From Patescibacteria group bacterium (GTDB lineage: Bacteria; Patescibacteriota; Patescibacteriia; Patescibacteriales; JBAZCA01), in the NCBI GenBank assembly GCA_041661405.1, contig JBAZUL010000008.1:3640-67639 (forward strand): a stretch of 64,000 bases of DNA. Reading direction: 5' to 3'. The notes beneath the pieces were generated by a model. The model searched no databases, was not told the origin of the DNA, and saw only the letters and a list, made by a program, of their open reading frames with translations. The first letter of the stretch is position 1. Each line of letters opens with the position of its first letter. Below, piece after piece: positions 1,152 to 60,088 of this stretch. Position numbers and translations under genes: made by a program.

Positions 1152-2639
1152 ATGAAAAAAATTATCAGCGTGGCAAAGAAAATTGGCATACCGGAAAATT
1201 CGCTTGAATCGCAAGGGGACTACATTGCCAAAATAAAAATGCCTTTAAAGAAAAAAGTTGGAAAAAGAAAAGTCGGCAAGCTGATTTTATTCACCGCCAT
1301 TACCCCGACCCGTTTTGGCGAAGGAAAAACTACCATGTCCATTGGCATGGCCGACGCGCTTAACCGGCTCGGAAAAAAAGTTATCCTTGCCTTGCGCGAG
1401 CCGTCGCTTGGGCCGGTCTTTTCCCAAAAAGGCGGCGCGATCGGCGGAGGCAAGGCTAAAGTCGTTCCGTCCGAAGAAATAAATCTGCATTTTACCGGCG
1501 ACTTTCACGCCGTAACCGCCGTCCACAACCTGATTGCCGCGGAAATTGATAATTCCGTCCATTGGAGCAACCCTTTGGATGTCAAGGAAATTTATTGGAA
1601 GCGCTCCATGGATTTATGCGACCGCTCGCTCCGCAAGGAATTTAATATCACCGCCGCTTCGGAAATTATGGCCATTTTATGCCTGGCAAACGATCTAAAA
1701 GATTTATCCCGGCGGTTGGAGTCTATTGTCATTGGCGTGAACGGACAAGGCCGGCCGATAAAAGTCAAGGATTTGAAAATTATTGATAACCTTATCGCCC
1801 TCATGAAAAGGGCGATCCTGCCTAACCTGGCGCAAACCAACGAAGGCGCTCCGGCCATTATTCATGGCGGCCCGTTCGCCAATATCGCTCATGGCGCCAA
1901 CAGCCTGATCGCGACCCGAACCGCGCTTTCTTTAGCCGATTATGTCGTTACCGAAGCCGGGTTTGGTTCGGATTTGGGCGGACTTAAATTTTTTGATATT
2001 GTAAGCCGCTTAGGAAAACTTAAGCCCGCGGCCGTTGTTTTGGTCGCCACTAACCGAGCCTTAAAAGAGTGCGGCATGGATAACCTGGGACGGCATATTG
2101 AAATTATCCGGCGATTAGGCGTTGAACCGATCGTAGTAATTAATAAATTTAACGATGATACGGAAAAAGACGTAAATGAAATTAAAAAATATTGTGAAAG
2201 CCAAAACGCTTCATGCGAAGTGAGTTTAGCTTTCGCGCAGGGCGGAAAGGGAAGCCTGAAACTGGCGAAAATGGTCCTGAAAAAAATTGACTCTTTTGGC
2301 GCAAAATCCCCGGCCCTGCGTCCGCTCTACAGTCTCAGCGAAGGGATTAAAGAAAAGGTGGAAATAATCAATTCTGAAATTTTCGGCGGAGCATGCGTTC
2401 TATTCTCGCCGCTCGCCAAAGCTAAAATTGAGCAATACGTAAAGTGGGGCTACGGGCAACTGCCGGTCTGCGTCGCTAAAACCCAGTATTCGTTATCCGA
2501 CGACAAAGCCCAGCCGCGGATTACCGGCGGGTTTACTTTAAAAGTTACCGATGCCCGCCTTTCGGCCGGAGCCGGTTTTATTGTTATCCAGTGCGGCGGC
2601 ATATTAACCATGCCCGGCATGCCGGATAAAAAAATATGA
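1152..2639 (+). CDS. fhs: Formate--tetrahydrofolate ligase (shortened form)
   Basis: Motifs PTRFGEGKTT, EPSLGPVF, INLHFTGDFHA, GGPFANIAHG, AKTQYSLSDD and RLSAGAGF. At 495 aa it is shorter than the ~555 aa I recall for this family. Confidence 0.9.
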   Translation: MKKIISVAKKIGIPENSLESQGDYIAKIKMPLKKKVGKRKVGKLILFTAITPTRFGEGKTTMSIGMADALNRLGKKVILALREPSLGPVFSQKGGAIGGGKAKVVPSEEINLHFTGDFHAVTAVHNLIAAEIDNSVHWSNPLDVKEIYWKRSMDLCDRSLRKEFNITAASEIMAILCLANDLKDLSRRLESIVIGVNGQGRPIKVKDLKIIDNLIALMKRAILPNLAQTNEGAPAIIHGGPFANIAHGANSLIATRTALSLADYVVTEAGFGSDLGGLKFFDIVSRLGKLKPAAVVLVATNRALKECGMDNLGRHIEIIRRLGVEPIVVINKFNDDTEKDVNEIKKYCESQNASCEVSLAFAQGGKGSLKLAKMVLKKIDSFGAKSPALRPLYSLSEGIKEKVEIINSEIFGGACVLFSPLAKAKIEQYVKWGYGQLPVCVAKTQYSLSDDKAQPRITGGFTLKVTDARLSAGAGFIVIQCGGILTMPGMPDKKI

Positions 2640-10701: not shown

Positions 10702-12014
10702 TATTCTATCCTCCTGATATCGGCTCCGAGCTTATTGAGCCGGCCGACAATATCTTCGTAGCCCCGTTCAATGGAATAGGAATTTCTTAGTACCGACCGT
10801 CCGCGGGCGGCGAGCATGGCGATAAGTAAATTTATGGACGGCCGGAGCGCCGGAGGACTGATAATTTCCGCCGGTTTGAGTTCAGTCGGGCCGGTGACGG
10901 AAACGCGATGCGGATCGTAGAGCGCCACGTCGGCGCCGAGCTTATTTAATTCAGTGTAATAGATCGCCCGGTTTTCATAAATCCAGTCATGCACCAGAGT
11001 CTTTCCTTCCGCCTGCGTCAGAATCGGGACGAATAACGGCAGGTTATCAATATTCAAACCCGGGTAAGGCAAAGGATGGATTTTATCCGGAAGCGCTTTC
11101 AGCCGGGAAGGGAGGACTTCAATATCAACGAGGTCAAAATAACCGTTTTCCGATTTGTAAGGTTTTGAAATTTTTAATTTTTGGCCCATGACCCTGAGTT
11201 TTTCAATTTCCAGCCGCAAAAAATCAATCGGACAGCGCGTTATTTTAATCCGGGATTTTGTCGTGATGGCAATGGAAATAAAAGCCATGGATTCAACCGG
11301 GTCGGGCATGACGGGGTAGTTATCCACCGGGGATAATTTTTCCACTCCGGAAATGACGAGCTTATTGGTGCCGATGCCGGAAATTTTCGCCCCGGCCGCG
11401 GAAAGGAAGCGGCACAAATCCTGCACCATGTAATTGGATGAAGCGAAATAAATTTCCGTCTTTTTAACCCCCAGTACGGCGGCGAAAATCGTATTTTCGG
11501 TGGCCGTATCGCCGGTTTCGTGCATAGTTACCGAACTGTCGCGCGGTTTGACTTTCGTTATCTCATATTGGCAATCAGTATCTTTTACCGAAAAACCCAT
11601 TTGTTCCATAGCCAGCTTATAGGGGTTAACCGTCCTTTTTCCGAGCTTACAGCCCGAACCTTTCGGCAGGCTAAAGCGGTTAAATATCGGCGAAAGCGAC
11701 CCCATAAAAAGCAGGGCGGCGCGGGTTTTCGCGAATGATTCATGGTTTAAATTTTTCAGGCTGATTTTCATGTCATTAACTATTTCCAGCTCATGTTTCC
11801 CGATCCATTTTATTTTCAGGCCGATGGATTCAAGGATTTCAATAATCCTTTTTACCTCTTCAATAATCGGGACATTAGCCAATGTGGTGCGTCCGGGAAT
11901 CATGGGCATGGCCGCGAGAATCGCCACGGCCGAGTTCTTCGCCGAATTGGTCGCGACCGTACCTTTTAATTTTTTTCCTCCGTTTATCAAGTAGTTTGAC
12001 ATATATTGACACAT
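10701..12014 (-). CDS. murA: UDP-N-acetylglucosamine 1-carboxyvinyltransferase
   Basis: KNSAVAILAA, an active-site loop with Cys (GSGCKLGKRTV) and the C-terminal RGYEDIVGRLNKLGADI. An alternative ATG lies at 12002. Confidence 0.9.
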   Translation of the reverse strand: MCQYMSNYLINGGKKLKGTVATNSAKNSAVAILAAMPMIPGRTTLANVPIIEEVKRIIEILESIGLKIKWIGKHELEIVNDMKISLKNLNHESFAKTRAALLFMGSLSPIFNRFSLPKGSGCKLGKRTVNPYKLAMEQMGFSVKDTDCQYEITKVKPRDSSVTMHETGDTATENTIFAAVLGVKKTEIYFASSNYMVQDLCRFLSAAGAKISGIGTNKLVISGVEKLSPVDNYPVMPDPVESMAFISIAITTKSRIKITRCPIDFLRLEIEKLRVMGQKLKISKPYKSENGYFDLVDIEVLPSRLKALPDKIHPLPYPGLNIDNLPLFVPILTQAEGKTLVHDWIYENRAIYYTELNKLGADVALYDPHRVSVTGPTELKPAEIISPPALRPSINLLIAMLAARGRSVLRNSYSIERGYEDIVGRLNKLGADIRRIE

Positions 12015-12048
12015 TACCGGAAATATGGAATTTTTTCAAGTGATTGTA

Positions 12049-12111
12049 TCGCTCACACGCCGGATCCCGCATGCCTTCGGCTGCGGGATGATTTGCTCAC
12101 ACGCAAATCAT
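12049..12111. repeat. Modular palindromic element, copy 1
   Basis: TCGCTCACACGC (12049-12060); hairpin ATCCCGCA-N10-TGCGGGAT (12064-12089); hairpin ATGATTTGC-TCACAC-GCAAATCAT (12088-12111). The same modules recur at 37669-37776. Confidence 0.85.
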
Positions 12112-12112
12112 T

Positions 12113-12140
12113 TTGACTTTCATAATAAAAATGGTAATCT
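12113..12140 (+). promoter_or_regulatory. Candidate promoter for the L,D-transpeptidase gene
   Basis: TTGACT (12113-12118), a 16-nt spacer, then TAATCT (12135-12140). The -10 element is weak. Confidence 0.35.
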
Positions 12141-29428: not shown

Positions 29429-30559
29429 ATGCCGTTATCATTAAAAAAACGCATCCTTTTTTCCGGAGGAGGAACAGCGGGCTCGGTAAGCCCGCTTTTG
29501 GCAATTTACGATGAATTGACATCGCCTCCGGCCCCTCTGATCGGAGGAGGGGAAACAGGGGAGGGGTATGAATTCCTTTGGATAGGCACAAAACATGGCG
29601 TTGAGCGGGCGATGGTGGAAAAAGAAGGCATCCCCTTTAAAGCCATCTATTCAGGGAAACTCCGCCGATATTTCAGCCTGAAAAATGTTTCGGACATCTT
29701 TTTTTTAAAGCTTGGATTTTTCCAGTCGCTTTTTATCATGCTTAAATGGCGGCCGAATCTCGTTATGTCCGCCGGCGGGTTCGTTAGCGTCCCGGTCGTT
29801 TTCGCGGCTTGGTGCTTGCGCGTTCCCGTTATAATCCATCAGCAGGATGTCCGGCCGGGTCTGGCTAATAAGCTCATGGCTCCTTTTGCCAAAATCATCA
29901 CAGTAACGTTTGAAAAATCTCTCGTTGACTACGGAAAAAAGGCCGTCTGGACAGGGAATCCGGTAAGGCAAAGCCTTGCAGAAAACAGACGACAGAAAAC
30001 AGACGACAGAAATTTTGAATCGTCCAGCAACTTGCCTGTGTTGCTAGTTGTCGGCGGCGGAACCGGTGCCATGTTCATAAATAATCTGGTTGCCGAATCA
30101 TTGAGTGAGTTAACCAAATTCTGCCAAATAATCCACGTTACAGGAAAAAACAAATCACCAATCCCTAATCACCAATCCCTAATCACCAATTACCATTCAT
30201 ACGAATTCCTTCCGGCCGATAAAATGGCCTCAGCCATAAAAAAAGCCGACCTGGTCGTCACCCGAGCCGGCATGAGTTTTTTAACCGAGCTTTCAATTTC
30301 CGGCAAACCGTCAATTATTATTCCAATCCCGGATTCGCATCAGTCTGATAACGCCGGGTATTTTGCCGAAAGGTCTGCGGCGATAGTCTTAGAGCAGGCT
30401 GGACTCAGTCCGGAAAAATTTGTTTCGCGGATAAAACAACTTCTGGCCGACGTTAAGGCTCTAGAAAAACTTAGGGCGAATATAAGCCGGGTCATGAAGC
30501 CGGGGGCAAGCGTCGAAATAACAAAAATTATTAATCAATTATTGCTCACCCGCCCATAG
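29429..30559 (+). CDS. murG: Undecaprenyldiphospho-muramoylpentapeptide beta-N-acetylglucosaminyltransferase
   Basis: ILFSGGGTAGSVSPLLAI N-terminal G-loop, LLVVGGGTGA, and the C-terminal ...TRAGMSFLTELSISGKPSIIIP region. Confidence 0.85.
   Translation: MPLSLKKRILFSGGGTAGSVSPLLAIYDELTSPPAPLIGGGETGEGYEFLWIGTKHGVERAMVEKEGIPFKAIYSGKLRRYFSLKNVSDIFFLKLGFFQSLFIMLKWRPNLVMSAGGFVSVPVVFAAWCLRVPVIIHQQDVRPGLANKLMAPFAKIITVTFEKSLVDYGKKAVWTGNPVRQSLAENRRQKTDDRNFESSSNLPVLLVVGGGTGAMFINNLVAESLSELTKFCQIIHVTGKNKSPIPNHQSLITNYHSYEFLPADKMASAIKKADLVVTRAGMSFLTELSISGKPSIIIPIPDSHQSDNAGYFAERSAAIVLEQAGLSPEKFVSRIKQLLADVKALEKLRANISRVMKPGASVEITKIINQLLLTRP
29979..30013 (+). repeat. In-frame heptamer/14-mer array inside murG (CAGAAAA CAGACGA x2.5)
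   Basis: CAGAAAA CAGACGA CAGAAAA CAGACGA CAGAAAT, encoding ..ENRRQKTDDRN.. Confidence 0.9.
30153..30194 (+). repeat. In-frame heptamer/14-mer array inside murG (AATCACC AATCCCT x3)
   Basis: AATCACC AATCCCT AATCACC AATCCCT AATCACC AATTACC, encoding ..SPIPNHQSLITNYH.. Confidence 0.9.
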
Positions 30560-31808: not shown

Positions 31809-31959
31809 TTAGGTGTATCTGAAGTTTAACGCCGACTTTATTGGTTAAAGTGTATCATTATTGCTAACTTATTTCAATGCACTAATCGTGGAATATTAGC
31901 TAAGCTAAGGTGTTAAATTTGGGCGTAGCCAGATATGCCGTGTTGTCGGAAATATTTTT

Positions 31960-32316
31960 TTAAATAATTTTTATTACATTATCTAAATCAAAAACTTCAT
32001 CAACTGTTATCAAAATTGCATTTCGGGCAGGATTATTTTTGTCAGCATTTACGCAAATATTAAAATACTTTCCTGAGTTAAAAATTTCAACAGTACCTTT
32101 AATTCGATAATATAGACCATCACTTTTGGCAACAACACATATCTTTCTATTTTCAGACAAATTTTTAATGGTGGTCGTCATTTGAGCGTCTGCGACCAAC
32201 AATTTATCATCATGGAATCCTAGCGAAATCACAATATTTGCATGAGGTTCATGTTGGGCTGTGCAAGTCGACAAAATTAATTCCTGCCCTTTTTTGAAAA
32301 CGTTTTGCCAAGACAT
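31960..32316 (-). CDS. Pyridoxamine 5-prime-phosphate oxidase-like (FMN-binding split barrel) protein
   Basis: 118 aa. Size and beta-rich pattern (ILSTCTAQHEPHANIV..KICVVAK..YYRIKGTVEI) resemble the family. The gene is markedly AT-rich. Confidence 0.5.
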   Translation of the reverse strand: MSWQNVFKKGQELILSTCTAQHEPHANIVISLGFHDDKLLVADAQMTTTIKNLSENRKICVVAKSDGLYYRIKGTVEIFNSGKYFNICVNADKNNPARNAILITVDEVFDLDNVIKII

Positions 32317-32375
32317 AGTGGAGAAAAAAATTATTTAAAAAAATATTTCAGCTAACTCCTTAATAGCAAACTAAT

Positions 32376-35200: not shown

Positions 35201-35255
35201 CTTCACATAAATACGCATATAAGACTTACTCACGCAAATCTGCAACTAAAAATGT

Positions 35256-37625: not shown

Positions 37626-37668
37626 AGGGTTATTATAATATACGGGTGCGGTTATGGCAAATTACAGA

Positions 37669-37776
37669 GCGTGTGAGCGAGGTATCCCGCAGCCGAAGGC
37701 GTGCGGGATCTGGCAGGATTGAATATCCCGCCCCGCAATACTGCGGGACGGGATGATTTGCTCGCACGCAAATCAT
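37669..37776. repeat. Modular palindromic element, copy 2 (three hairpins)
   Basis: GCGTGTGAGCGA (37669-37680); ATCCCGCA-N10-TGCGGGAT (37684-37709); ATCCCGCCCCGCA-ATAC-TGCGGGACGGGAT (37725-37754); ATGATTTGC-TCGCAC-GCAAATCAT (37753-37776). Confidence 0.85.
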
Positions 37777-37804
37777 TGACTTTTTGCTAAAAATACGTTA
37801 TTCT
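37776..37804 (+). promoter_or_regulatory. Candidate promoter for rnpB
   Basis: TTGACT (37776-37781), a 17-nt spacer, then TATTCT (37799-37804), about 70 nt upstream of the RNase P RNA P1 stem. Confidence 0.45.
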
Positions 37805-37872
37805 GGCATTAGGTTAGATTAGCTGAATTTTAACGATTTGGCTTTATTTTATTAGTATTTTCTAAGTTCTTT

Positions 37873-38415
37873 AAATTCCATTAATTTCAGGGCAAACGGA
37901 TAGCTACTGCGCCTCATGCGCAGAGGAAAGTCCGGACTCCTGTCCCGCCATGCTTGCATAGCGGGATGTAGCGGCAGTGGGTAACACCCACCCGCCGACG
38001 TTTCGCTCCGCATTTTGCGGGGCGGGAATAAGACGAGGGAAAGTGTCAAGTCCCGACCGCAAAGCGGCGGGACGAGATCCCGCCTTCCTTAATTCAAATT
38101 AAGAGAGGCGGGGCCACAGAGACAATACTATCCCGAGCAATCGGGAGAAAGGTGAAAAGTTGTCCCATGTTTATGGTTATAATTGGATATCCATATAACT
38201 GTAAACCAGGGACTTTTCCGGCTGGCGACAGCCGTGAACGGTAAACCCTGCCTGGAGCAAGAGCAAACTCCTTTTTTCGCGCAAGCGGAGCAAGGAAGAC
38301 AAGTGGCTCGCTTGATCCCGCGGAGTAATTCGCGGGACAGATAAATGGCTATCTATCCTTCGCGAGAAGGTGGACAGAATCCGGCTTACAGTTTGCCCTG
38401 AAATTAATGGAATTT
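37873..38415 (+). ncRNA. rnpB: RNase P RNA, bacterial type A, unusually long
   Basis: P4 strands GAGGAAAGTCCGGACTCC (5-prime) and ACAGAATCCGGCTTAC (3-prime) show a compensatory A/T change. Also present: GCCACAGAGACAA, GGTAAACCC, GGAGCAAG and AGATAAATGGCT. P1 forms between 37873-37897 and 38391-38415 (25 perfect bp); the core P1 is 37888-37897/38391-38400. Confidence 0.9.
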
Positions 38416-38425
38416 ACCAGGACGA

Positions 38426-41217: not shown

Positions 41218-42693
41218 ATGCCAGATAAAAATAACATCCGATTGCGTTTCGCGCCTTCGCCAACCGGATTTCTGCACATCGGCAGTTTAAGAACCGCGCT
41301 TTTTGATTATATAATCGCTAAAAAACTCGGCGGTAAATTAATCCTCCGGATTGAAGATACTGATCAAAAAAGGGAAGTAGCGGGCGCCGTAGAGAGTCTT
41401 GTAAAAATTCTTGACTGGATCGGAATTGGTTTTGACGAAGGTCCGCACGCGGGCGGCGATTACGGCCCATACACGCAGACGGAAAGGCTTGATATCTATA
41501 AAAAACATGCGGATGAACTAATAAATAAAGGCAGGGCTTATTATTGTTTTTGCTCTGCCGAAAGGCTGGAAGAAGTCCGAAATAAACAGCAGACGGAAAA
41601 ACAAGCTCCGAGATACGACCGCCATTGCCGCGATTTAAGCGAAGATGAAATTAAGAAAAAAATCGCCTGTAGCGAAAAATATGTTATCCGGCAGAAAATG
41701 CCTTTGGAGGGGAAAATTATTGTCCATGACGAGCTTCGGGGCGATATAGAATTTAACGCGACTGAACTGGAAGACCATGTTCTGATAAAATCCAACGGTA
41801 TCCCGACTTACCAGTTCGCAAGCGTCGTGGACGATCATCTAATGGAAATTTCCCACGTTGTCCGCGGCGAAGAATGGCTGCCGTCATTTCCGAAAAATAT
41901 TTTGCTTTATCAGGCGTTCGGCTGGGAGCCGCCGAAGTTCGTCCACCTCGCCCTGACCTTAAATAAAGGCGGCGGCAAGCTATCAAAGCGCCAGGGCGAC
42001 GTCGCGGTTGAGGATTACCGCGCCAAAGGTTATCTTCCCGAAGCGCTCATCAATTTTTGCGTTCTGCAGGGCTGGCATCCCAAGGACGACAATGAAATTT
42101 TAACTTTGGATGAAATAATTAAAAAGTTCGAAATTAAAGACATGGGAACGAGTCCGGCGATTTTTGATATTGAAAAACTGGATTTTTTTAACGGCTATTA
42201 TATTCGCCATAAGAGTTTGGATGAGCTGGCTGAGATGTGCAGGCCGCATCTTGAGGAAAATTTAAAGAAGACGACAGACGACAGACGACAGACGACAGAT
42301 TTTATCAAAGACGTGGTAAAACTGGAACAGGAGCGTCTGAAAAAATTATCAGAAATTTCCGAGCTGACTGAATTCTTTTTCGTTGATAAACTGGAATACG
42401 ACCCAACGCTTTTAATCTGGAAAAAAATGTCCGCCGAAGAAGTAAAAGAAAAATTAAAAGAAGTCGCGGATGTTTTGGAAAGGATTCCGGAAGAATTCTG
42501 GACCAATGATTCAATTGAAGAAGCGATTAAAACCCATATTGCGGCGAAAAACGGCCAAATGGGCGAATACCTCTGGCCCATGCGCGTTGCCCTGACCGGC
42601 CGCAAAGCCTCGCCATCGCCTTTTGACGTTGCTGAGGTTTTAGGGAAGGAAGATAGTTTAAAGAGGGTGAAGGAGGGGATGGAAAGGATTTAA
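41218..42693 (+). CDS. gltX: Glutamate--tRNA ligase
   Basis: RLRFAPSPTGFLHIGSLRTALF (HIGH class) and KLSKRQG (KMSKS). Confidence 0.92.
   Translation: MPDKNNIRLRFAPSPTGFLHIGSLRTALFDYIIAKKLGGKLILRIEDTDQKREVAGAVESLVKILDWIGIGFDEGPHAGGDYGPYTQTERLDIYKKHADELINKGRAYYCFCSAERLEEVRNKQQTEKQAPRYDRHCRDLSEDEIKKKIACSEKYVIRQKMPLEGKIIVHDELRGDIEFNATELEDHVLIKSNGIPTYQFASVVDDHLMEISHVVRGEEWLPSFPKNILLYQAFGWEPPKFVHLALTLNKGGGKLSKRQGDVAVEDYRAKGYLPEALINFCVLQGWHPKDDNEILTLDEIIKKFEIKDMGTSPAIFDIEKLDFFNGYYIRHKSLDELAEMCRPHLEENLKKTTDDRRQTTDFIKDVVKLEQERLKKLSEISELTEFFFVDKLEYDPTLLIWKKMSAEEVKEKLKEVADVLERIPEEFWTNDSIEEAIKTHIAAKNGQMGEYLWPMRVALTGRKASPSPFDVAEVLGKEDSLKRVKEGMERI
42270..42297 (+). repeat. In-frame heptamer array inside gltX (GACGACA x4)
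   Basis: GACGACA repeated four times exactly, encoding ..KKTTDDRRQTTD.. Confidence 0.95.
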
Positions 42694-42929: not shown

Positions 42930-44636
42930 ATGGAAGCAGGAAAACGAAACATACCCGACATATTCAACAGAGCAAATAAATTGAAAATACCCCACTTTCA
43001 AAGATCTTATGTTTGGCGCGAAGAACAATGGGAACGATTTTTAGATGACATGCAATACGCATCTCACGCTAATCGCCCCTATTTTATGGGCTCAGTCATA
43101 CTAAAACAACAAGAAACCCAAGTTAATCAAGATAATATAAGAACTATTATTGACGGCCAGCAAAGGCTCACAACAGTAATTCTGTTTTTCAAGGCATTAT
43201 TTATTAATAATGATACACCAGAAAAATTTCCTCATATTTTTACAACATTTAATAATGGTGTGATTTTGGAACATAATTATTCTGATAAACCGATATTTGA
43301 CAAAATTTTACTTGACCAAGACCTAGAATCAAAAGAAAAGAAGAGTCAAATAGCCAAATGTTATAAATATTTTTTAGAAAAAATTAAACCCAGCGAGATT
43401 GATCCAAATAAACTACTATCCAATATTTTATTTGTCGGAATTGATTTGTTATACAACGAAGATGAGCAGCAAATATTTGATACAATTAATTCTTTGGGGG
43501 TCAGACTGACTACGGCTGAGTTGCTAAAGAATTATTTATTTCGAGATGACGTTAATTTTTACAATACAAATTGGCGGGATGTATTTGAAAAAAACGATGA
43601 AATAAAAGAATATTGGGATCAAGAGGTTACTTCTGGACGAAATATCAGAAATAACATAGATCTGTTTTTGCAGGCCTACCTGTTTATTAAAATTCAAGAA
43701 AATGGGATCAACGTTAGTTCTGATGACAAAGAAAGATTTTTCAAAATTGACTCTGTTTTTAATTCCTACAAGGAATTTATTACTGATTATCAAATGGATA
43801 AAAATGCCATAATAAATGAATTAAAGGAATACGCCAGTGTTTATAAAAGCACAATTAATCCAAAAATTGTTGAGCAAGACATTGATAAAAATGACTACGC
43901 CCAAAGATTAAATTTAGTAATGTTTGGATTGGATACGGCGACTATAATTCCATATGTTTTGTATGTATCAAAAAAGGTTAGTAGCCAAGAGGAAAAAAAC
44001 AAAATATTCAGATATTTAGAGGCCTACCTAATAAGAAGGCTTATTTGTAGAGAGACAACAAAAAATTATAACCAACTATTTAGGAGTTTAATAAACAACG
44101 AGATTAATTCCTTTGAAAAATTGAAGGAAATAATCGAAATGAAGGGCGAAAAAATTAATAAAATGCCCTCAGATAGCACAGTAGAGGATGGATTTAATAA
44201 TTCAAAGCTTGCAAATAAATATGCAAAGGGTGTTCTATATTTAATTGAAAGAACAACTAGAAATGATTTAAATGCTACTGAACTAAAATATTTCAATGAA
44301 TATAGCCTAGAACATGTGATGCCGAAAAAATGGCGAAACAACTGGAATATTCAAAATTTAACGAACGAACAGGCAGAACAACGCGATGACTTAATATTAA
44401 CACTTGGTAATCTAACATTAATCACAAAACAATTAAATTCTTCTATAAGAGACTCCGACTGGCCAACGAAAAAAAATGGTAATGGAAGAAATCTCGGCCT
44501 TATAGAGTATGCTCAAGGAATAGAAATATTTTCACAATATCTACAAAGAGATAATTGGGACGAGAGCACAATAAAGGAAAGGGCTGTGCAACTGCTCAAA
44601 TCAGCAGTAGAAAGAGTTTGGAATCTTGACTTCTAA
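42930..44636 (+). CDS. DUF262/DUF1524 two-domain nuclease (GmrSD-like type IV restriction family)
   Basis: N-terminal IPHFQRSYVWREEQWERFLDD and IDGQQRLTT (DUF262/ParB-like). C-terminal SLEHVMPKKW ... LGNLTLITKQLNSSIRD (His-Me finger, DUF1524). The gene is strongly AT-rich relative to its neighbours. Confidence 0.8.
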   Translation: MEAGKRNIPDIFNRANKLKIPHFQRSYVWREEQWERFLDDMQYASHANRPYFMGSVILKQQETQVNQDNIRTIIDGQQRLTTVILFFKALFINNDTPEKFPHIFTTFNNGVILEHNYSDKPIFDKILLDQDLESKEKKSQIAKCYKYFLEKIKPSEIDPNKLLSNILFVGIDLLYNEDEQQIFDTINSLGVRLTTAELLKNYLFRDDVNFYNTNWRDVFEKNDEIKEYWDQEVTSGRNIRNNIDLFLQAYLFIKIQENGINVSSDDKERFFKIDSVFNSYKEFITDYQMDKNAIINELKEYASVYKSTINPKIVEQDIDKNDYAQRLNLVMFGLDTATIIPYVLYVSKKVSSQEEKNKIFRYLEAYLIRRLICRETTKNYNQLFRSLINNEINSFEKLKEIIEMKGEKINKMPSDSTVEDGFNNSKLANKYAKGVLYLIERTTRNDLNATELKYFNEYSLEHVMPKKWRNNWNIQNLTNEQAEQRDDLILTLGNLTLITKQLNSSIRDSDWPTKKNGNGRNLGLIEYAQGIEIFSQYLQRDNWDESTIKERAVQLLKSAVERVWNLDF

Positions 44637-45105: not shown

Positions 45106-45465
45106 ATGGCATCGGACAAAGATTTTGTTGAATTTATTGCCGAACAAATGAAAGAAGCCGGGCTTATCAGCTACCGAAAGATGTTCGGGGAATACGCGGT
45201 TTACTGCGGCGGAAAGGTCGTCGCCCTAGTCTGCGACAACCGGCTTTTCGTAAAGCCGACCAAAGGCGGAAGAGAATATATCGGCAAGGTTGTAGAAGCT
45301 CCGGCTTATCCCGGCGCGAAACCGAGTTTTCTAATTGAAGATAAATTTGAAGACCGGCAGTGGATTAGCGAGCTGATACGGATTACAGCCGAAGAGCTAC
45401 CGGCGCCGAAGCCGAAAAAAGCGCGGAAAAACCCGAAAAAATTAATGAGAAGAGCTCTTAAATAA
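45106..45465 (+). CDS. TfoX N-terminal domain protein
   Basis: FVEFIAEQM...YRKMFGEYAVYCGGKVVALVCDNRLFVKPT pattern of the TfoX_N family. Confidence 0.7.
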   Translation: MASDKDFVEFIAEQMKEAGLISYRKMFGEYAVYCGGKVVALVCDNRLFVKPTKGGREYIGKVVEAPAYPGAKPSFLIEDKFEDRQWISELIRITAEELPAPKPKKARKNPKKLMRRALK

Positions 45466-54893: not shown

Positions 54894-56336
54894 ATGAAAA
54901 TTCCTGAATACATCAAAAATATTTTAGCGAATCTGGAAAAGGCCGGATATGAGGCTTTTATTGTGGGCGGTTGCGCGCGGGATTTGCTTATGGGAAGAAT
55001 TCCGAAAGACTGGGATATAACGACTAACGCTAAGCCGGAGGAAACTTTAAAAGTTTTTTCCGAGGGAAAATATGAAAACGTATTTGGAACCGTACTGCTC
55101 CCGGTGAGAAACAGGGAAGAGGTGATTGACGTGGTAGAAATAACCACCTACCGGAGCGAACAGGGCTACTCTGACCGCCGTCATCCGGATGAGATCAGGT
55201 TTGAAGAAAAGCTGGACAAAGACCTGGAACGCCGCGATTTTACCATTAACGCGATGGCATTTAAAGTTAAAAGTGATGAGCATGAGATTATTGACCTCTT
55301 CGGCGGACAAAAAGATTTAAAGAAAAAAATTATCCGGGCGGTAGGGGAGCCGGTTGATCGCTTTAAGGAGGACGCTTTAAGGATGATGCGCGCCATCAGG
55401 TTTTCGTCTGAACTCAGATTTGAGATTGAGCCGAAAACCGAACGGGCGATCGCTAAGCTCGCCGGGTCTATAAAATTCGTTTCTAAAGAAAGGATCCGCG
55501 ACGAGCTGATCCGCGTATTGAGTTCGGATCGGGCTTATGACGGCGTCATGAAGCTCCATGAATTAAAACTTCTGCAATATATAATTCCCGAACTGGAAAA
55601 GGGGATTGGAGTGGCTCAGGATCGGCATCACATCCATACCGTGTTCAAACATTCAGTGCTGGCTCTTAAGTTCTGCCCTTCCAAAGACTGGCGCGTCCGG
55701 CTCGCTTCGCTTCTGCACGATATTGCCAAACCGGACACGAAAAGGATGGATAAAGGCCATGCCACCTTTTACAACCACGACATCCTTGGCGCTAAATACG
55801 CGAAAAAAATCGCCCAGAGGCTGAAATTTTCCGTCACTGATACGGAAAAAGTCGTTATCTTGGTAAAAAATCACATGTTTTACTATAATGTCGACGAAGT
55901 AACGGCCGCTTCGGTTCGGCGACTCATAAAAAAAGTCGGGGAAGAGAACCTGAAAGACTTGATTGACGTAAGGATAGCCGATCGGCTCGGGTCCGGCGTA
56001 CCCAAAGCCAAACCCTATAAGCTCCGGCATCTGGAATACATGATGGAAAAGGTGAGGAAAGACCCGCTTTCTGTAAAAATGCTAAAAATTGACGGAAATG
56101 ATATAATGCAAATGATGGGTACCCCGCCGGGCCCGAAAATCGGCGCGATTCTTGATGTCCTCTTGGCTGAAGTAATTGAAGATCCGGAATTGAACGCGAA
56201 GGACAAACTGGAAAAAAAAGCGAAAGAGCTTGACGGCTATAACCTGGAGGAGCTAAGGGAAAAAGCCAAAGAAAAAATTGACGAAAAAAAAGAGGAAGAA
56301 GACCAGGAATTGAAAAAAGAATTTTGGGTAAAATGA
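54894..56336 (+). CDS. cca: CCA tRNA nucleotidyltransferase with HD domain
   Basis: GGCARDLLMG, DWDITT, RRDFTINAMA and an HD region (LLHDIAKP), plus a Lys/Glu-rich C-terminal tail. Confidence 0.88.
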   Translation: MKIPEYIKNILANLEKAGYEAFIVGGCARDLLMGRIPKDWDITTNAKPEETLKVFSEGKYENVFGTVLLPVRNREEVIDVVEITTYRSEQGYSDRRHPDEIRFEEKLDKDLERRDFTINAMAFKVKSDEHEIIDLFGGQKDLKKKIIRAVGEPVDRFKEDALRMMRAIRFSSELRFEIEPKTERAIAKLAGSIKFVSKERIRDELIRVLSSDRAYDGVMKLHELKLLQYIIPELEKGIGVAQDRHHIHTVFKHSVLALKFCPSKDWRVRLASLLHDIAKPDTKRMDKGHATFYNHDILGAKYAKKIAQRLKFSVTDTEKVVILVKNHMFYYNVDEVTAASVRRLIKKVGEENLKDLIDVRIADRLGSGVPKAKPYKLRHLEYMMEKVRKDPLSVKMLKIDGNDIMQMMGTPPGPKIGAILDVLLAEVIEDPELNAKDKLEKKAKELDGYNLEELREKAKEKIDEKKEEEDQELKKEFWVK

Positions 56337-59083: not shown

Positions 59084-60088
59084 ATGGTTAATGTAAAGCA
59101 CGCTGTAAAAACCAATAAAAACTCCCTGACCGGCCATATAACCGGTTTCCTTGAGTATTGCGAAGTGGAAAAAGGACTCTCCCCTAATACGGTGGAAAAT
59201 TATTCCCGGTTTTTAAAAAAATTTAGCGTCTGGCTTAATGATAATCACCTTAAAAATATAAAGCCCGGGGAACTGAATGACAAAATTGTCTGGGACTACC
59301 GGCTCTACCTCTCCCGCGCCAAGGGTTCCCGGACCGGCCAGAACCTTAAAAAAACCACCCAAAACTATTACCTTATCGCTCTGAGGGCGCTTATGGAGTA
59401 TTTCTCCATTAAAGACATAAAATCCCTAGCGCCGAATAAAATCCGGCTTCCGAAGCTCACCGACAAAGACAAGGCGATAAAATTTTTAAGCCTCAGCCAG
59501 GTAGAAGATCTCCTGTCCCAGCCGGATACGAATACCGAAGCCGGACTAAGAGACCGGGCGATGCTGGAAATTCTCTTCTCAACCGGTTTCCGGGTTTCTG
59601 AGCTAGTGTCTCTTAATGTAACCCAGTTTAGTGTTCCGGTAATTGAAAAATTCCTAAAAGACGGCAAAAGTTTTGAGTTAAGCATATCCGGAAAAGGCGG
59701 AAGAATCCGGGTAGTCTATTTTTCGCCGCGGGCGCTTCATTGGCTCGCCAAATATTACAATAAAAGAAAAGATAACGAAAAGCCGCTTTTTATCAACTAC
59801 CGCTCCCCTGCCCCGCGTTCGCGGGAGGCAAGGCTTTCCGTCCGTTCGGTTGACCGGATAATCGCCAAATACGTAAAAATGGCCGGCCTGCCGATTTCCG
59901 CCACCCCGCATTCTCTCCGGCATTCTTTCGCGACTGACCTTTTAAACCAGGGCGCGGGATTGCGCGATGTCCAGGAACTCTTGGGCCATAAAAATATTTC
60001 TACGACCCAAATCTATACTCACGTAACCAATAAAAAACTCCGTGAAGTTCACGAAAAATTTCACGGAGCCAGAGAAATTAGCAACTAA
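59084..60088 (+). CDS. Tyrosine recombinase, XerC/XerD family
   Basis: N-terminal SAM-like domain, then the catalytic region ..GLRDRAMLEILFSTGFRVSEL.., HSLRHSFATDLL and LLGHKNISTTQIYTHV. Confidence 0.88.
   Translation: MVNVKHAVKTNKNSLTGHITGFLEYCEVEKGLSPNTVENYSRFLKKFSVWLNDNHLKNIKPGELNDKIVWDYRLYLSRAKGSRTGQNLKKTTQNYYLIALRALMEYFSIKDIKSLAPNKIRLPKLTDKDKAIKFLSLSQVEDLLSQPDTNTEAGLRDRAMLEILFSTGFRVSELVSLNVTQFSVPVIEKFLKDGKSFELSISGKGGRIRVVYFSPRALHWLAKYYNKRKDNEKPLFINYRSPAPRSREARLSVRSVDRIIAKYVKMAGLPISATPHSLRHSFATDLLNQGAGLRDVQELLGHKNISTTQIYTHVTNKKLREVHEKFHGAREISN

Follow-up and report, generated by a model that had tools for sequence, protein, structure and literature searches.

A two-hairpin repeat between divergent promoters of a Patescibacteria genome and its relatives in partial tRNA gene copies

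The window analysed here, a stretch of 64,000 nucleotides from a Patescibacteria group bacterium (GenBank assembly GCA_041661405.1, contig JBAZUL010000008.1), contains two intergenic regions in which the same palindromic modules recur: one between the murA and L,D-transpeptidase (ykuD) genes (copy 1), the other between a gene for a 498-amino-acid protein and the RNase P RNA gene rnpB (copy 2). What are these modules? A sequence-only reading had offered three candidates, namely a mosaic repeat resembling repetitive extragenic palindromes (REPs) and bacterial interspersed mosaic elements (BIMEs), an operator for a dimeric regulator, and a shared 5' leader. Both copies are made of a two-hairpin module that was copied, inverted, truncated and recombined within the source genome. 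On balance, the units are probably a non-autonomous, structure-defined repeat of the kind of REPs and REPINs (REP doublets forming hairpins), belonging to a previously uncatalogued family peculiar to Patescibacteria.

A two-hairpin module present three times in the window

Repeat units were called with a covariance model, R1, built from 30 units. The scan of the window yielded three matches (60.8, 60.0 and 39.1 bits), with the next best scoring below 16 bits. All sequence features described earlier were present in the window and the sharing of modules between two places was confirmed, while the count of two copies had to be raised to three units as copy 2 consists of two of them in inverted orientation. 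The units and their parts are the following (hp1 and hp2, hairpins 1 and 2; aa, amino acids).

12058-12116, minus strand (the sense strand): unit 1, complete hp2-hp1 module; R1 score 60.8 bits, E = 5e-16
12088-12111, minus strand: hp2 of unit 1, on the plus strand ATGATTTGC / TCACAC / GCAAATCAT; sense-strand loop GUGUGA
12064-12089, minus strand: hp1 of unit 1, ATCCCGCA / TGCCTTCGGC / TGCGGGAT; sense-strand apical mini-hairpin GCC-GAA-GGC
12051-12060, minus strand: orphan GCGTGTGAGC core, stump of a truncated second tandem unit, with no hp1 behind the core
12040-12110, minus strand: strain-variable segment of copy 1, 71 nt, between the putative murA -35 and the putative ykuD -35
37657-37715, plus strand: unit 2 (c2L), 60.0 bits; hp2 degenerate, core GCGTGTGAGC at 37669-37678, hp1 at 37684-37709
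37719-37781, minus strand: unit 3 (c2R), 39.1 bits, E = 1e-9; inverted with respect to unit 2
37726-37755 and 37754-37777, minus strand: hp1 (longer) and hp2 (GUGCGA loop) of unit 3

The module runs from hp2, or just its GCGTGTGAGC core, through N5 to hp1, about 55-60 nt in total, and can be searched for with the linear pattern CCCGC-N6-20-GCGGGAT-N5-GCTCNCACGC or relaxed forms. hp2 is a stem of variable sequence in which G-C pairs close a GUGUGA or GUGCGA loop. hp1 has the foot (A)UCCCGC/GCGGG(A) and an apical mini-hairpin with a GAA or GNRA-type loop. Copy 1 is composed of one full unit and the stump of another; the extra GCTCACACGC at 12051-12060, previously taken for a module of its own, is this stump. 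In copy 2, units 2 and 3 form an inverted doublet; they are 17 nt apart, and their cores are predicted by folding to pair and thereby give one long hairpin (z = -6.3). Unit 1 has its hp1 in common with unit 2 and its hp2 in common with unit 3; hence, the copies have recombined.

The longest inverted repeat of the window (I1) relates 12059-12104 to 37669-37714 over 46 nt with 87% identity, and a direct repeat (D19) relates 12084-12112 to 37749-37777 over 29 nt with 97% identity. Allowing at most one mismatch, GCTCACACGC was matched six times compared to 1.35 matches expected, a number reached in none of 100 shuffles, and four of the six matches fall within the elements. The motif ATCCCGC-N12-GCGGGAT had four matches (0.35 expected), and the palindrome TGATTTGC-N6-GCAAATCA was matched exactly in both copy 1 and copy 2. 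Folding as single-stranded DNA gave z-scores of -3.2 for copy 1 and of -6.3 and -5.7 for copy 2. The further occurrence of a 10-nt core at 35231-35240, to which attention had been drawn, is a chance match, and R1 finds nothing there; across the rest of the window, 10-mers of the elements had 22 stray matches, compared to 18.2 +/- 8.7 for shuffled elements.

Each composite takes up the space that separates two -35 hexamers standing back to back. Their placement between divergent transcription units had been recognized correctly, except that copy 2 has on its right the RNase P RNA gene and not a protein gene. The flanking signals are listed below.

12034-12039, minus strand: TTGAAA, putative murA -35, 17-nt spacer to TAATGT (12011-12016); left edge of the variable segment
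12113-12118, plus strand: TTGACT, putative -35 of the L,D-transpeptidase gene (ykuD); native sequence outside the element
37632-37660, minus strand: promoter of the 498-aa gene, TTGCCA-17 nt-TATAAT, 11/12 match, strong; left boundary of copy 2
37776-37804, plus strand: promoter-like site before rnpB, TTGACT-17 nt-TATTCT, 9/12 match; right boundary of copy 2
37888-38404: RNase P RNA gene (rnpB), 135.8 bits; right-hand neighbour of copy 2

The murA and ykuD hexamers stayed below the threshold of the promoter scan and were read from the sequence, which is why these two -35 assignments are given as putative. Relative to each of the four flanking -35 hexamers the three units are upstream, and they are not within any leader. 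No gene converges on them, and the promoter scan found no promoter able to transcribe the window units.

The RNase P RNA next to copy 2 is of class A. With 517 nt compared to the 367 positions of the model (135.8 bits) the gene must carry sizeable insertions. A 33-nt inverted repeat (91%; 37872-37904 and 38384-38416) surrounds it and looks like a much extended P1 stem; the 5' part of the gene includes a hairpin resembling hp1 (GTCCCGCC...GCGGGAT, 37942-37967).

Variation among relatives and a wider family

The two loci were compared with those of relatives, labelled L001 etc., among which L001 and L002 are Logan contigs from independent sequencing runs. In L001 and L002 the 71-nt segment of copy 1 is replaced by 33 unrelated nucleotides; the flanks are 100% identical, on the left up to the murA TTGAAA hexamer, and the transpeptidase is the same. 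A derivation of the 33-nt allele from copy 1 by deletion was considered and rejected, as the similarity is not significant (63% of shuffles score equally). The sister species L082, with a transpeptidase 85% identical, likewise has no copy 1 unit and retains the TTGACT...TAATCT block. The putative ykuD block TTGACTTTC...AAAAATGGTAATCTTAAT is thus conserved in L001/L002 and in L082, all of which are without the element. The TTGACT hexamer had been described as conserved together with the second hairpin; kept in strains and in a sister species that have no element, it is native promoter sequence.

At copy 2, one contig is identical to the window, and unit 2 is present in L003. In L086, whose neighbouring protein is 96% identical, only about 23 nt separate TGGCAA from TTGACT; units 2 and 3 are absent, and the promoter-like sequence of rnpB is identical to that of the window despite their absence. 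The sister species L087 has no copy 2 unit and carries, between the 498-aa gene and rnpB, an extra gene for a 375-aa membrane-anchored protein. L072 has unit 2 only; unit 3 is absent, and synteny breaks exactly at the 3' edge of unit 2, beyond which a homologue of the extra gene of L087 is found.

Close relatives keep the flanks but have no units, and the units are therefore dispensable and recent; they are located at rearrangement junctions. Gain and loss of units occurs on the time scale of strain divergence, and the putative ykuD block and the rnpB promoter are independent of the units.

The extra gene (L087, 2710-3837; L072, 244-1227) encodes 327-375 aa with a transmembrane N-terminus, the two versions being 54% identical. 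It is absent from the window and from L086, the indel falling exactly at the site of the inverted doublet (window 37710-37725). Its product had no match in Pfam or PDB, and with this result and the transmembrane N-terminus its candidacy as a transposase was rejected. In L086 the start of the 498-aa gene and its promoter are set apart by some 110 additional nucleotides (about 1560-1700, minus strand) that the window does not have, a further sign that the intergenic region between the 498-aa gene and rnpB is hypervariable.

Further members were sought in genomes (one per species) with an 18-base pattern and in metagenomes with a structured pattern. The genome scan gave two true relatives, one in an unclassified Patescibacteria metagenome-assembled genome (MAG) and one in a Candidatus Falkowbacteria MAG, the others being GC-rich chance matches. 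Of 48 loci obtained in the metagenome scan, about 30 were AT-rich true members and the rest again GC-rich chance matches. With the two MAG loci added and duplicates dropped, there are about 26 distinct loci besides the window, all of them AT-rich and from genomes or metagenomes of Patescibacteria (Candidate Phyla Radiation, CPR). Viral contigs scanned for the module gave no match. Since further copies do exist, the modules cannot be dismissed as a chance duplication, an outcome that the sequence-only reading had allowed for; an association with promoters as a general rule does not hold, the further copies being mostly linked to tRNA genes.

The hp2 stem covaries. Across 30 distinct units, five of the eight pairs of the hp2 stem changed on both sides. 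Cells with compensated double changes numbered 52, compared to 10.9 in shuffles, and the covariation score was 0.307, compared to 0.03-0.06 when partners were slid. The 33 non-Watson-Crick cells of hp2, counted on one strand, comprise 29 G.A or A.G, three U.G and one C.A. On the same strand as the G.A cells, hp1 has apical loops such as GAA, GUAA, GAAA, GCAA and similar ones. Taken together, the covariation of hp2, the restriction of G.A mismatches to one strand and the loops of hp1 indicate that the module works as a folded single strand. It folds on one particular strand, the one bearing GUGUGA, which is the sense strand.

In about 18 of the 26 loci the module lies inside a partial copy of a tRNA gene that adjoins an intact tRNA gene. 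In the larger class (T-loop class, 14-15 loci) the unit is located at tRNA position 55/56 (GTT^C) in the same orientation as the tRNA gene. Its 5' flank consists of the T-stem 5' strand plus TT, its 3' flank of the sequence from C56 to the tRNA end plus 1-7 nt, and at 11 of these loci the intact tRNA ends 23-59 nt upstream of the GCGTG core of the unit. In the D-loop class (four loci) the unit occupies GTT^CAA of a partial 5' copy, with the intact tRNA following downstream. Flanks of the form GTT^C(R)A were found at 18 tRNA-linked loci; flanks derived from tRNA are missing at seven other loci and at the window copies. The tRNA fragment is identical to the adjacent tRNA in four loci (L007, L048, L061, L073) and differs from it in others. 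The 5' flank pairs with its own T-stem 3' strand over 3.87 bp, compared to 3.17 bp with mismatched partners (16 of 5000 permutations), and the minimum-free-energy folds of tRNA-linked units repeatedly take the form of a three-way junction. Units are arrayed in tandem in L005, L050 and L058.

Partial tRNA copies next to intact tRNAs are also interrupted by GC-rich hairpins that have no hp2 (L061, 2818-2900; L068, 7780-7860, minus strand; L077, 2061-2150; L053, 1590-1650; L043, 800-960). The feet of these hairpins are CCCGC/GCGGG or TCCGCC/GGCGGA, and they occupy the D-loop (GGTTA^GAGC), the T-loop or the anticodon loop. Hairpins in tRNA loops of pseudo-copies thus extend beyond the hp2-hp1 family. 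The tRNA genes inspected (L007, L048, L061, L073) are mostly without encoded CCA and often end in N73-C-A; a CCA-adding enzyme is encoded in the window at 54894-56336. The tRNA fragments on units in L054 and L081 carry CCA while the adjacent genes do not. A role of the antisense strand as primer-binding site for tRNA 3' ends was rejected as not general, most fragments being without CCA. Comparison by eye of the three-way junction with the hammerhead core CUGANGA/GAAA gave no match.

The element could not be assigned to a catalogued family. In the window, Rfam 15 at the gathering threshold returned RNase P only; searched over the units, it returned nothing at an E-value threshold of 1 (six related loci) or 10 (copy 1 region). 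GenBank phages and PLSDB plasmids contained no match to the module. Neighbouring genes did not recur, given that an all-against-all BLASTP comparison of 168 open reading frames (ORFs) revealed housekeeping synteny only; nor did any Pfam family recur beyond such synteny among 94 unit neighbours, in the best 25 of 139 families. In the 34 occurrences in which both hairpins are present, hp1 starts within a few nucleotides of hp2. No gene splitting hp2 from hp1 was found at any locus examined, the remaining occurrences being truncated or variant units. A published description of the hp2-hp1 element was not found in the literature searched, where REPINs (PMC3116915) and the hairpin elements of mitochondria (PMC2800124) come closest as concepts.

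How the repeat may be understood

If the units are repeats of the REP/REPIN kind, they would spread or be exchanged as single-stranded DNA hairpins, similar to REPs and REPINs or to IS200-type miniature elements, and would be mobilised by an enzyme encoded elsewhere in the genome. Their preferred landing site may be GTT^C(R)A, the sequence encoding tRNA T-loops and some D-loops, and the units of the window would survive as passengers in the dispensable, untranscribed gap between back-to-back -35 boxes. We infer the mode of movement, the target preference and the lack of a function. Any effect on the neighbouring promoters, for example by a cruciform that absorbs the negative supercoils of divergent transcription, would be secondary.

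The following observations weigh against this interpretation: (i) there is no clean pair of an empty and a filled site, as alleles differ by replacement of the whole spacer, which could equally reflect homologous allele exchange between strains; (ii) no target-site duplication is visible at the window copies, and these are without the GTT and C flanks of the tRNA-linked copies; (iii) a mobilising enzyme was not found, Pfam revealing no Y1/HUH transposase among the 40 ORFs scanned in the window, where the negative result for 1-21 kb rests on annotation of the syntenic sister species, and the sole recombinase found in the window being a Xer-like tyrosine recombinase (59084-60088); (iv) copy number is apparently low, with three units in 64 kb, no unit in about 45 kb of relatives' DNA taken without selection and a single locus per genome in both matches of the genome scan; (v) the hp2 loop and the hp1 foot are alike across lineages whose housekeeping proteins are only about 60% identical, an invariance which is partly imposed by the search patterns, as unit 3 and the L050 variants, found by the model or by a core-motif search instead of the structured pattern, demonstrate variability of loop and foot; and (vi) functional RNAs, too, typically have G.A pairs and GNRA-type loops. 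The recombinase has Phage_integrase and SAM-like N-terminal domains and is located downstream of an ORF with a Mur ligase domain and of an ftsQ-like gene.

A broader proposal, which we put forward tentatively, is that an element class found throughout Patescibacteria occupies tRNA loops (T-loop 55/56 and D-loop, and the anticodon loop for relatives consisting of hp1 only), always in a partial copy next to an intact tRNA. It could be a mobile element homing to tRNA loops with coupled duplication of the disrupted segment, or a conserved three-way-junction RNA of tRNA operons with a tail made of the tRNA 3' end; the window copies would in either case be escapees to promoter gaps.

The second of these possibilities leads to the main rival of a REP/REPIN-like repeat, according to which the units form a functional structured RNA of tRNA-operon transcripts: a three-way junction closed by the T-stem, with hp2 and hp1 as arms and a single-stranded acceptor 3' strand. 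Such an RNA might act as a processing or decoy element or as a guide-like RNA, and the window copies would be displaced or decayed. The 11 loci with an intact tRNA on the same strand shortly upstream of the unit accord with this idea, and so do the unit between a tRNA and a canonical terminator in L007 and the unit between tRNA-Phe and tRNA-Pro, downstream of a 16S rRNA gene, in L073. The recurrence of three-way-junction folds whose closing stem fits its own partner, the covariation of the stem, the tandem G.A pairs and GAA/GNRA-type loops on the tRNA-sense strand only, and the conservation of the core across distant lineages point in the same direction. However, the units of the window are located upstream of all four -35 hexamers with no promoter detected to transcribe them, have neither T-stem nor acceptor tail, and are dispensable in near-identical strains. 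Units are also truncated, inverted and arrayed, a T-loop cannot function with an insertion between positions 55 and 56, no Rfam family matched, and the strand asymmetry is equally expected of single-stranded DNA hairpins. A structured RNA therefore explains the RNA-like features and the conservation across lineages but not the untranscribed, dispensable, truncated and inverted copies of the window, and we consider it unlikely. The three other explanations fit the data less well.

One of them regards the hairpins as arm sequence of integrative elements that target tRNA genes and the tRNA-linked loci as their attR-type attachment (att) scars, with the window copies as further scars. This is improbable, even though the 3' part of the tRNA (T-arm to gene end plus 1-7 nt) is duplicated beside the intact gene, units form tandem arrays (L058, L050, L005), synteny breaks at the unit 2 edge in L072, and a tyrosine recombinase is encoded in the window. 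The hairpins are positioned within the T-loop of the partial copy (55/56) and not beside an uninterrupted block of identity, and the spacer between tRNA and unit measures only 14-45 nt, which leaves nothing of an element's interior. Integration at the 3' end would not account for the partial 5' copies with an interrupted D-loop, and in about half of the loci the fragment mismatches the adjacent tRNA. Furthermore, no integrase recurs nearby (94 neighbours; best 25 of 139 families), and there was no viral, phage or plasmid match.

That the palindrome TGATTTGC-N6-GCAAATCA serves a dimeric transcription factor as operator, for the co-regulation of ykuD and rnpB, has very little probability left. 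It was an attractive idea in that a perfect palindrome is located 0-2 nt from TTGACT at both sites and that the family member L067 also has TTGAC beside hp2. Yet what the family conserves is the complementarity of the half-sites and not their sequence, while the 6-nt centre is the conserved part, which is the opposite of what a duplex half-site for a dimeric protein would require; in addition, the G.A mismatches are strand-specific. The putative ykuD block and the rnpB promoter are intact and without the palindrome in strains with identical or 96%-identical neighbour proteins and in the sister species, and most family members adjoin tRNA genes, not promoters. Least credible of all is a shared 5' leader or a terminator or attenuator of the flanking genes, since each unit precedes the -35 hexamer of any gene it faces, no gene converges on the units, close strains dispense with them and hp1 has no T-run, even if hp2 of unit 3 with GACTTTTTGC behind it fits a simple terminator pattern on the plus strand. 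The relatives that have the flanking genes and no units, together with the traits of the family, thus remove both the operator and the leader.

Genomes of Patescibacteria are very small and gene-dense, and little has been reported on their repeats or mobile DNA. The units described here indicate that structured miniature repeats persist and turn over between strains even in such genomes, where they mark hot spots of intergenic variation and synteny breaks. Their concentration in partial tRNA gene copies, interrupted exactly in the loops, was unexpected. If the link to tRNA reflects targeting, it points to an unrecognised enzyme that reads the DNA or RNA of tRNA loops and to insertion into essential genes without killing the host. 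In annotation, the element should not be labelled as operator, riboswitch or terminator, and the covariance model provides a marker for strain typing of these uncultured bacteria.

Other features of the window were recorded in passing. A gene of the PNPOx family (118 aa; 31960-32316, minus strand) is flanked by 31-nt AT-rich inverted repeats (90%; 31942-31972 and 32326-32356). A gene for a GmrSD-type (type IV) restriction endonuclease has a TfoX_N-domain gene nearby (42930-44636 and 45106-45465), and the GmrSD-type gene region has the lowest GC content of the window (0.40 over 40-44 kb). At two sites, 29980-30019 and 42269-42308, GACGACA / GAAAACA heptamers are repeated in short tandem runs (40 nt, 80% alike).

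Comparison with known systems

The proposal of a REP/BIME-like mosaic repeat proved right as to the kind of element, with modular copies in both orientations, an inverted doublet, presence or absence depending on the strain, and a wider family. Membership in REP/BIME proper is not supported, there being no GTAG head, no gene for a REP-associated tyrosine transposase (RAYT) and an apparently low copy number. REPs, BIMEs and REPINs (RAYT being a Y1 HUH enzyme; Proteobacteria) are, like the present units, short, GC-rich, imperfect palindromes in intergenic, non-coding DNA. They occur as singles and as inverted doublets folding into a long hairpin, as does copy 2, and form modular mosaics that are present or absent depending on the strain. 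Strand-specific recognition as single strands is known for REPs and may apply to the units here. The differences are as follows: (i) the GTAG/GTGG head of REPs is absent from the alignment of 30 units, where the 5' flank of hp2 is GTTT in tRNA-linked units and AAAT or AATT in the others; (ii) each unit has two unlike, contiguous hairpins and a conserved loop instead of a foot tetranucleotide; (iii) copy number is apparently lower, REPs having tens to hundreds of extragenic copies per genome, compared to three units in 64 kb and one locus per genome-scan match; (iv) no RAYT was found among 40 ORFs of the window or 94 unit neighbours (best 25 of 139 families); (v) units, but not REPs, are strongly linked to partial tRNA gene copies, and their hosts are Patescibacteria.

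With the miniature elements of IS200/IS605 (palindrome-associated transposable elements, PATEs) and with IS91-type rolling-circle elements the units share hairpin-defined ends that would act as single-stranded DNA, and they may also share a short specific target and insertion without duplication. IS91 is reported to use GTTC/CTTG as target, and the tRNA-linked units are situated in GTT^C. By analogy, capture of flanking DNA by read-through could explain why tRNA fragments travel with the unit. In contrast to PATEs, a full-length parent in which hp2 and hp1 bracket a transposase gene was not found at the loci examined, the two hairpins being always contiguous, and the linker or guide arrangement of IS608 has no counterpart here.

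Double-hairpin or repetitive hairpin elements of mitochondria, for instance those of sponges (PMC2800124), are likewise small, GC-rich modules of two hairpins in AT-rich, compact genomes, are often found near tRNA genes, and are considered mobile from their presence and absence. They are unrelated in sequence and host, whereas the present units have an invariant hp2 loop and a defined position in tRNA loops. The tyrT/rtT-type repeats of Escherichia coli are found behind tRNA genes, open with a duplicate of the tRNA 3' end, occur in tandem and are co-transcribed with the tRNA. They have no conserved double hairpin in the T-loop and no sequence similarity to the units, and Rfam, which holds RtT, gave no match. 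A term for these tRNA-linked E. coli repeats is mentioned in a passage of PMC8144298.

In integron attC sites, too, the folded single strand defines the site, extrahelical or mismatched bases are strand-specific and GTT is present at the crossover. The units do not have the paired R''(RYYYAAC)/R'(GTTRRRY) boxes but only a single GTTTGAC-like box each, whose pairing partner lies within hp2; neither a cassette array nor IntI is present, and the units are not at the 3' ends of cassettes. The mobile short introns at non-canonical positions of archaeal tRNA genes are also short, GC-rich hairpins in D-, anticodon- and T-loops. The hosts here are bacteria, as bacterial RNase P and bacterial small-subunit rRNA were found, and the interrupted copies are partial and hence cannot make a tRNA, while the intact neighbour has no interruption. 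Judged by those defining features that were open to testing, the element is not REP/BIME, though it works like that kind, and its association with tRNA loops could be new in kind.

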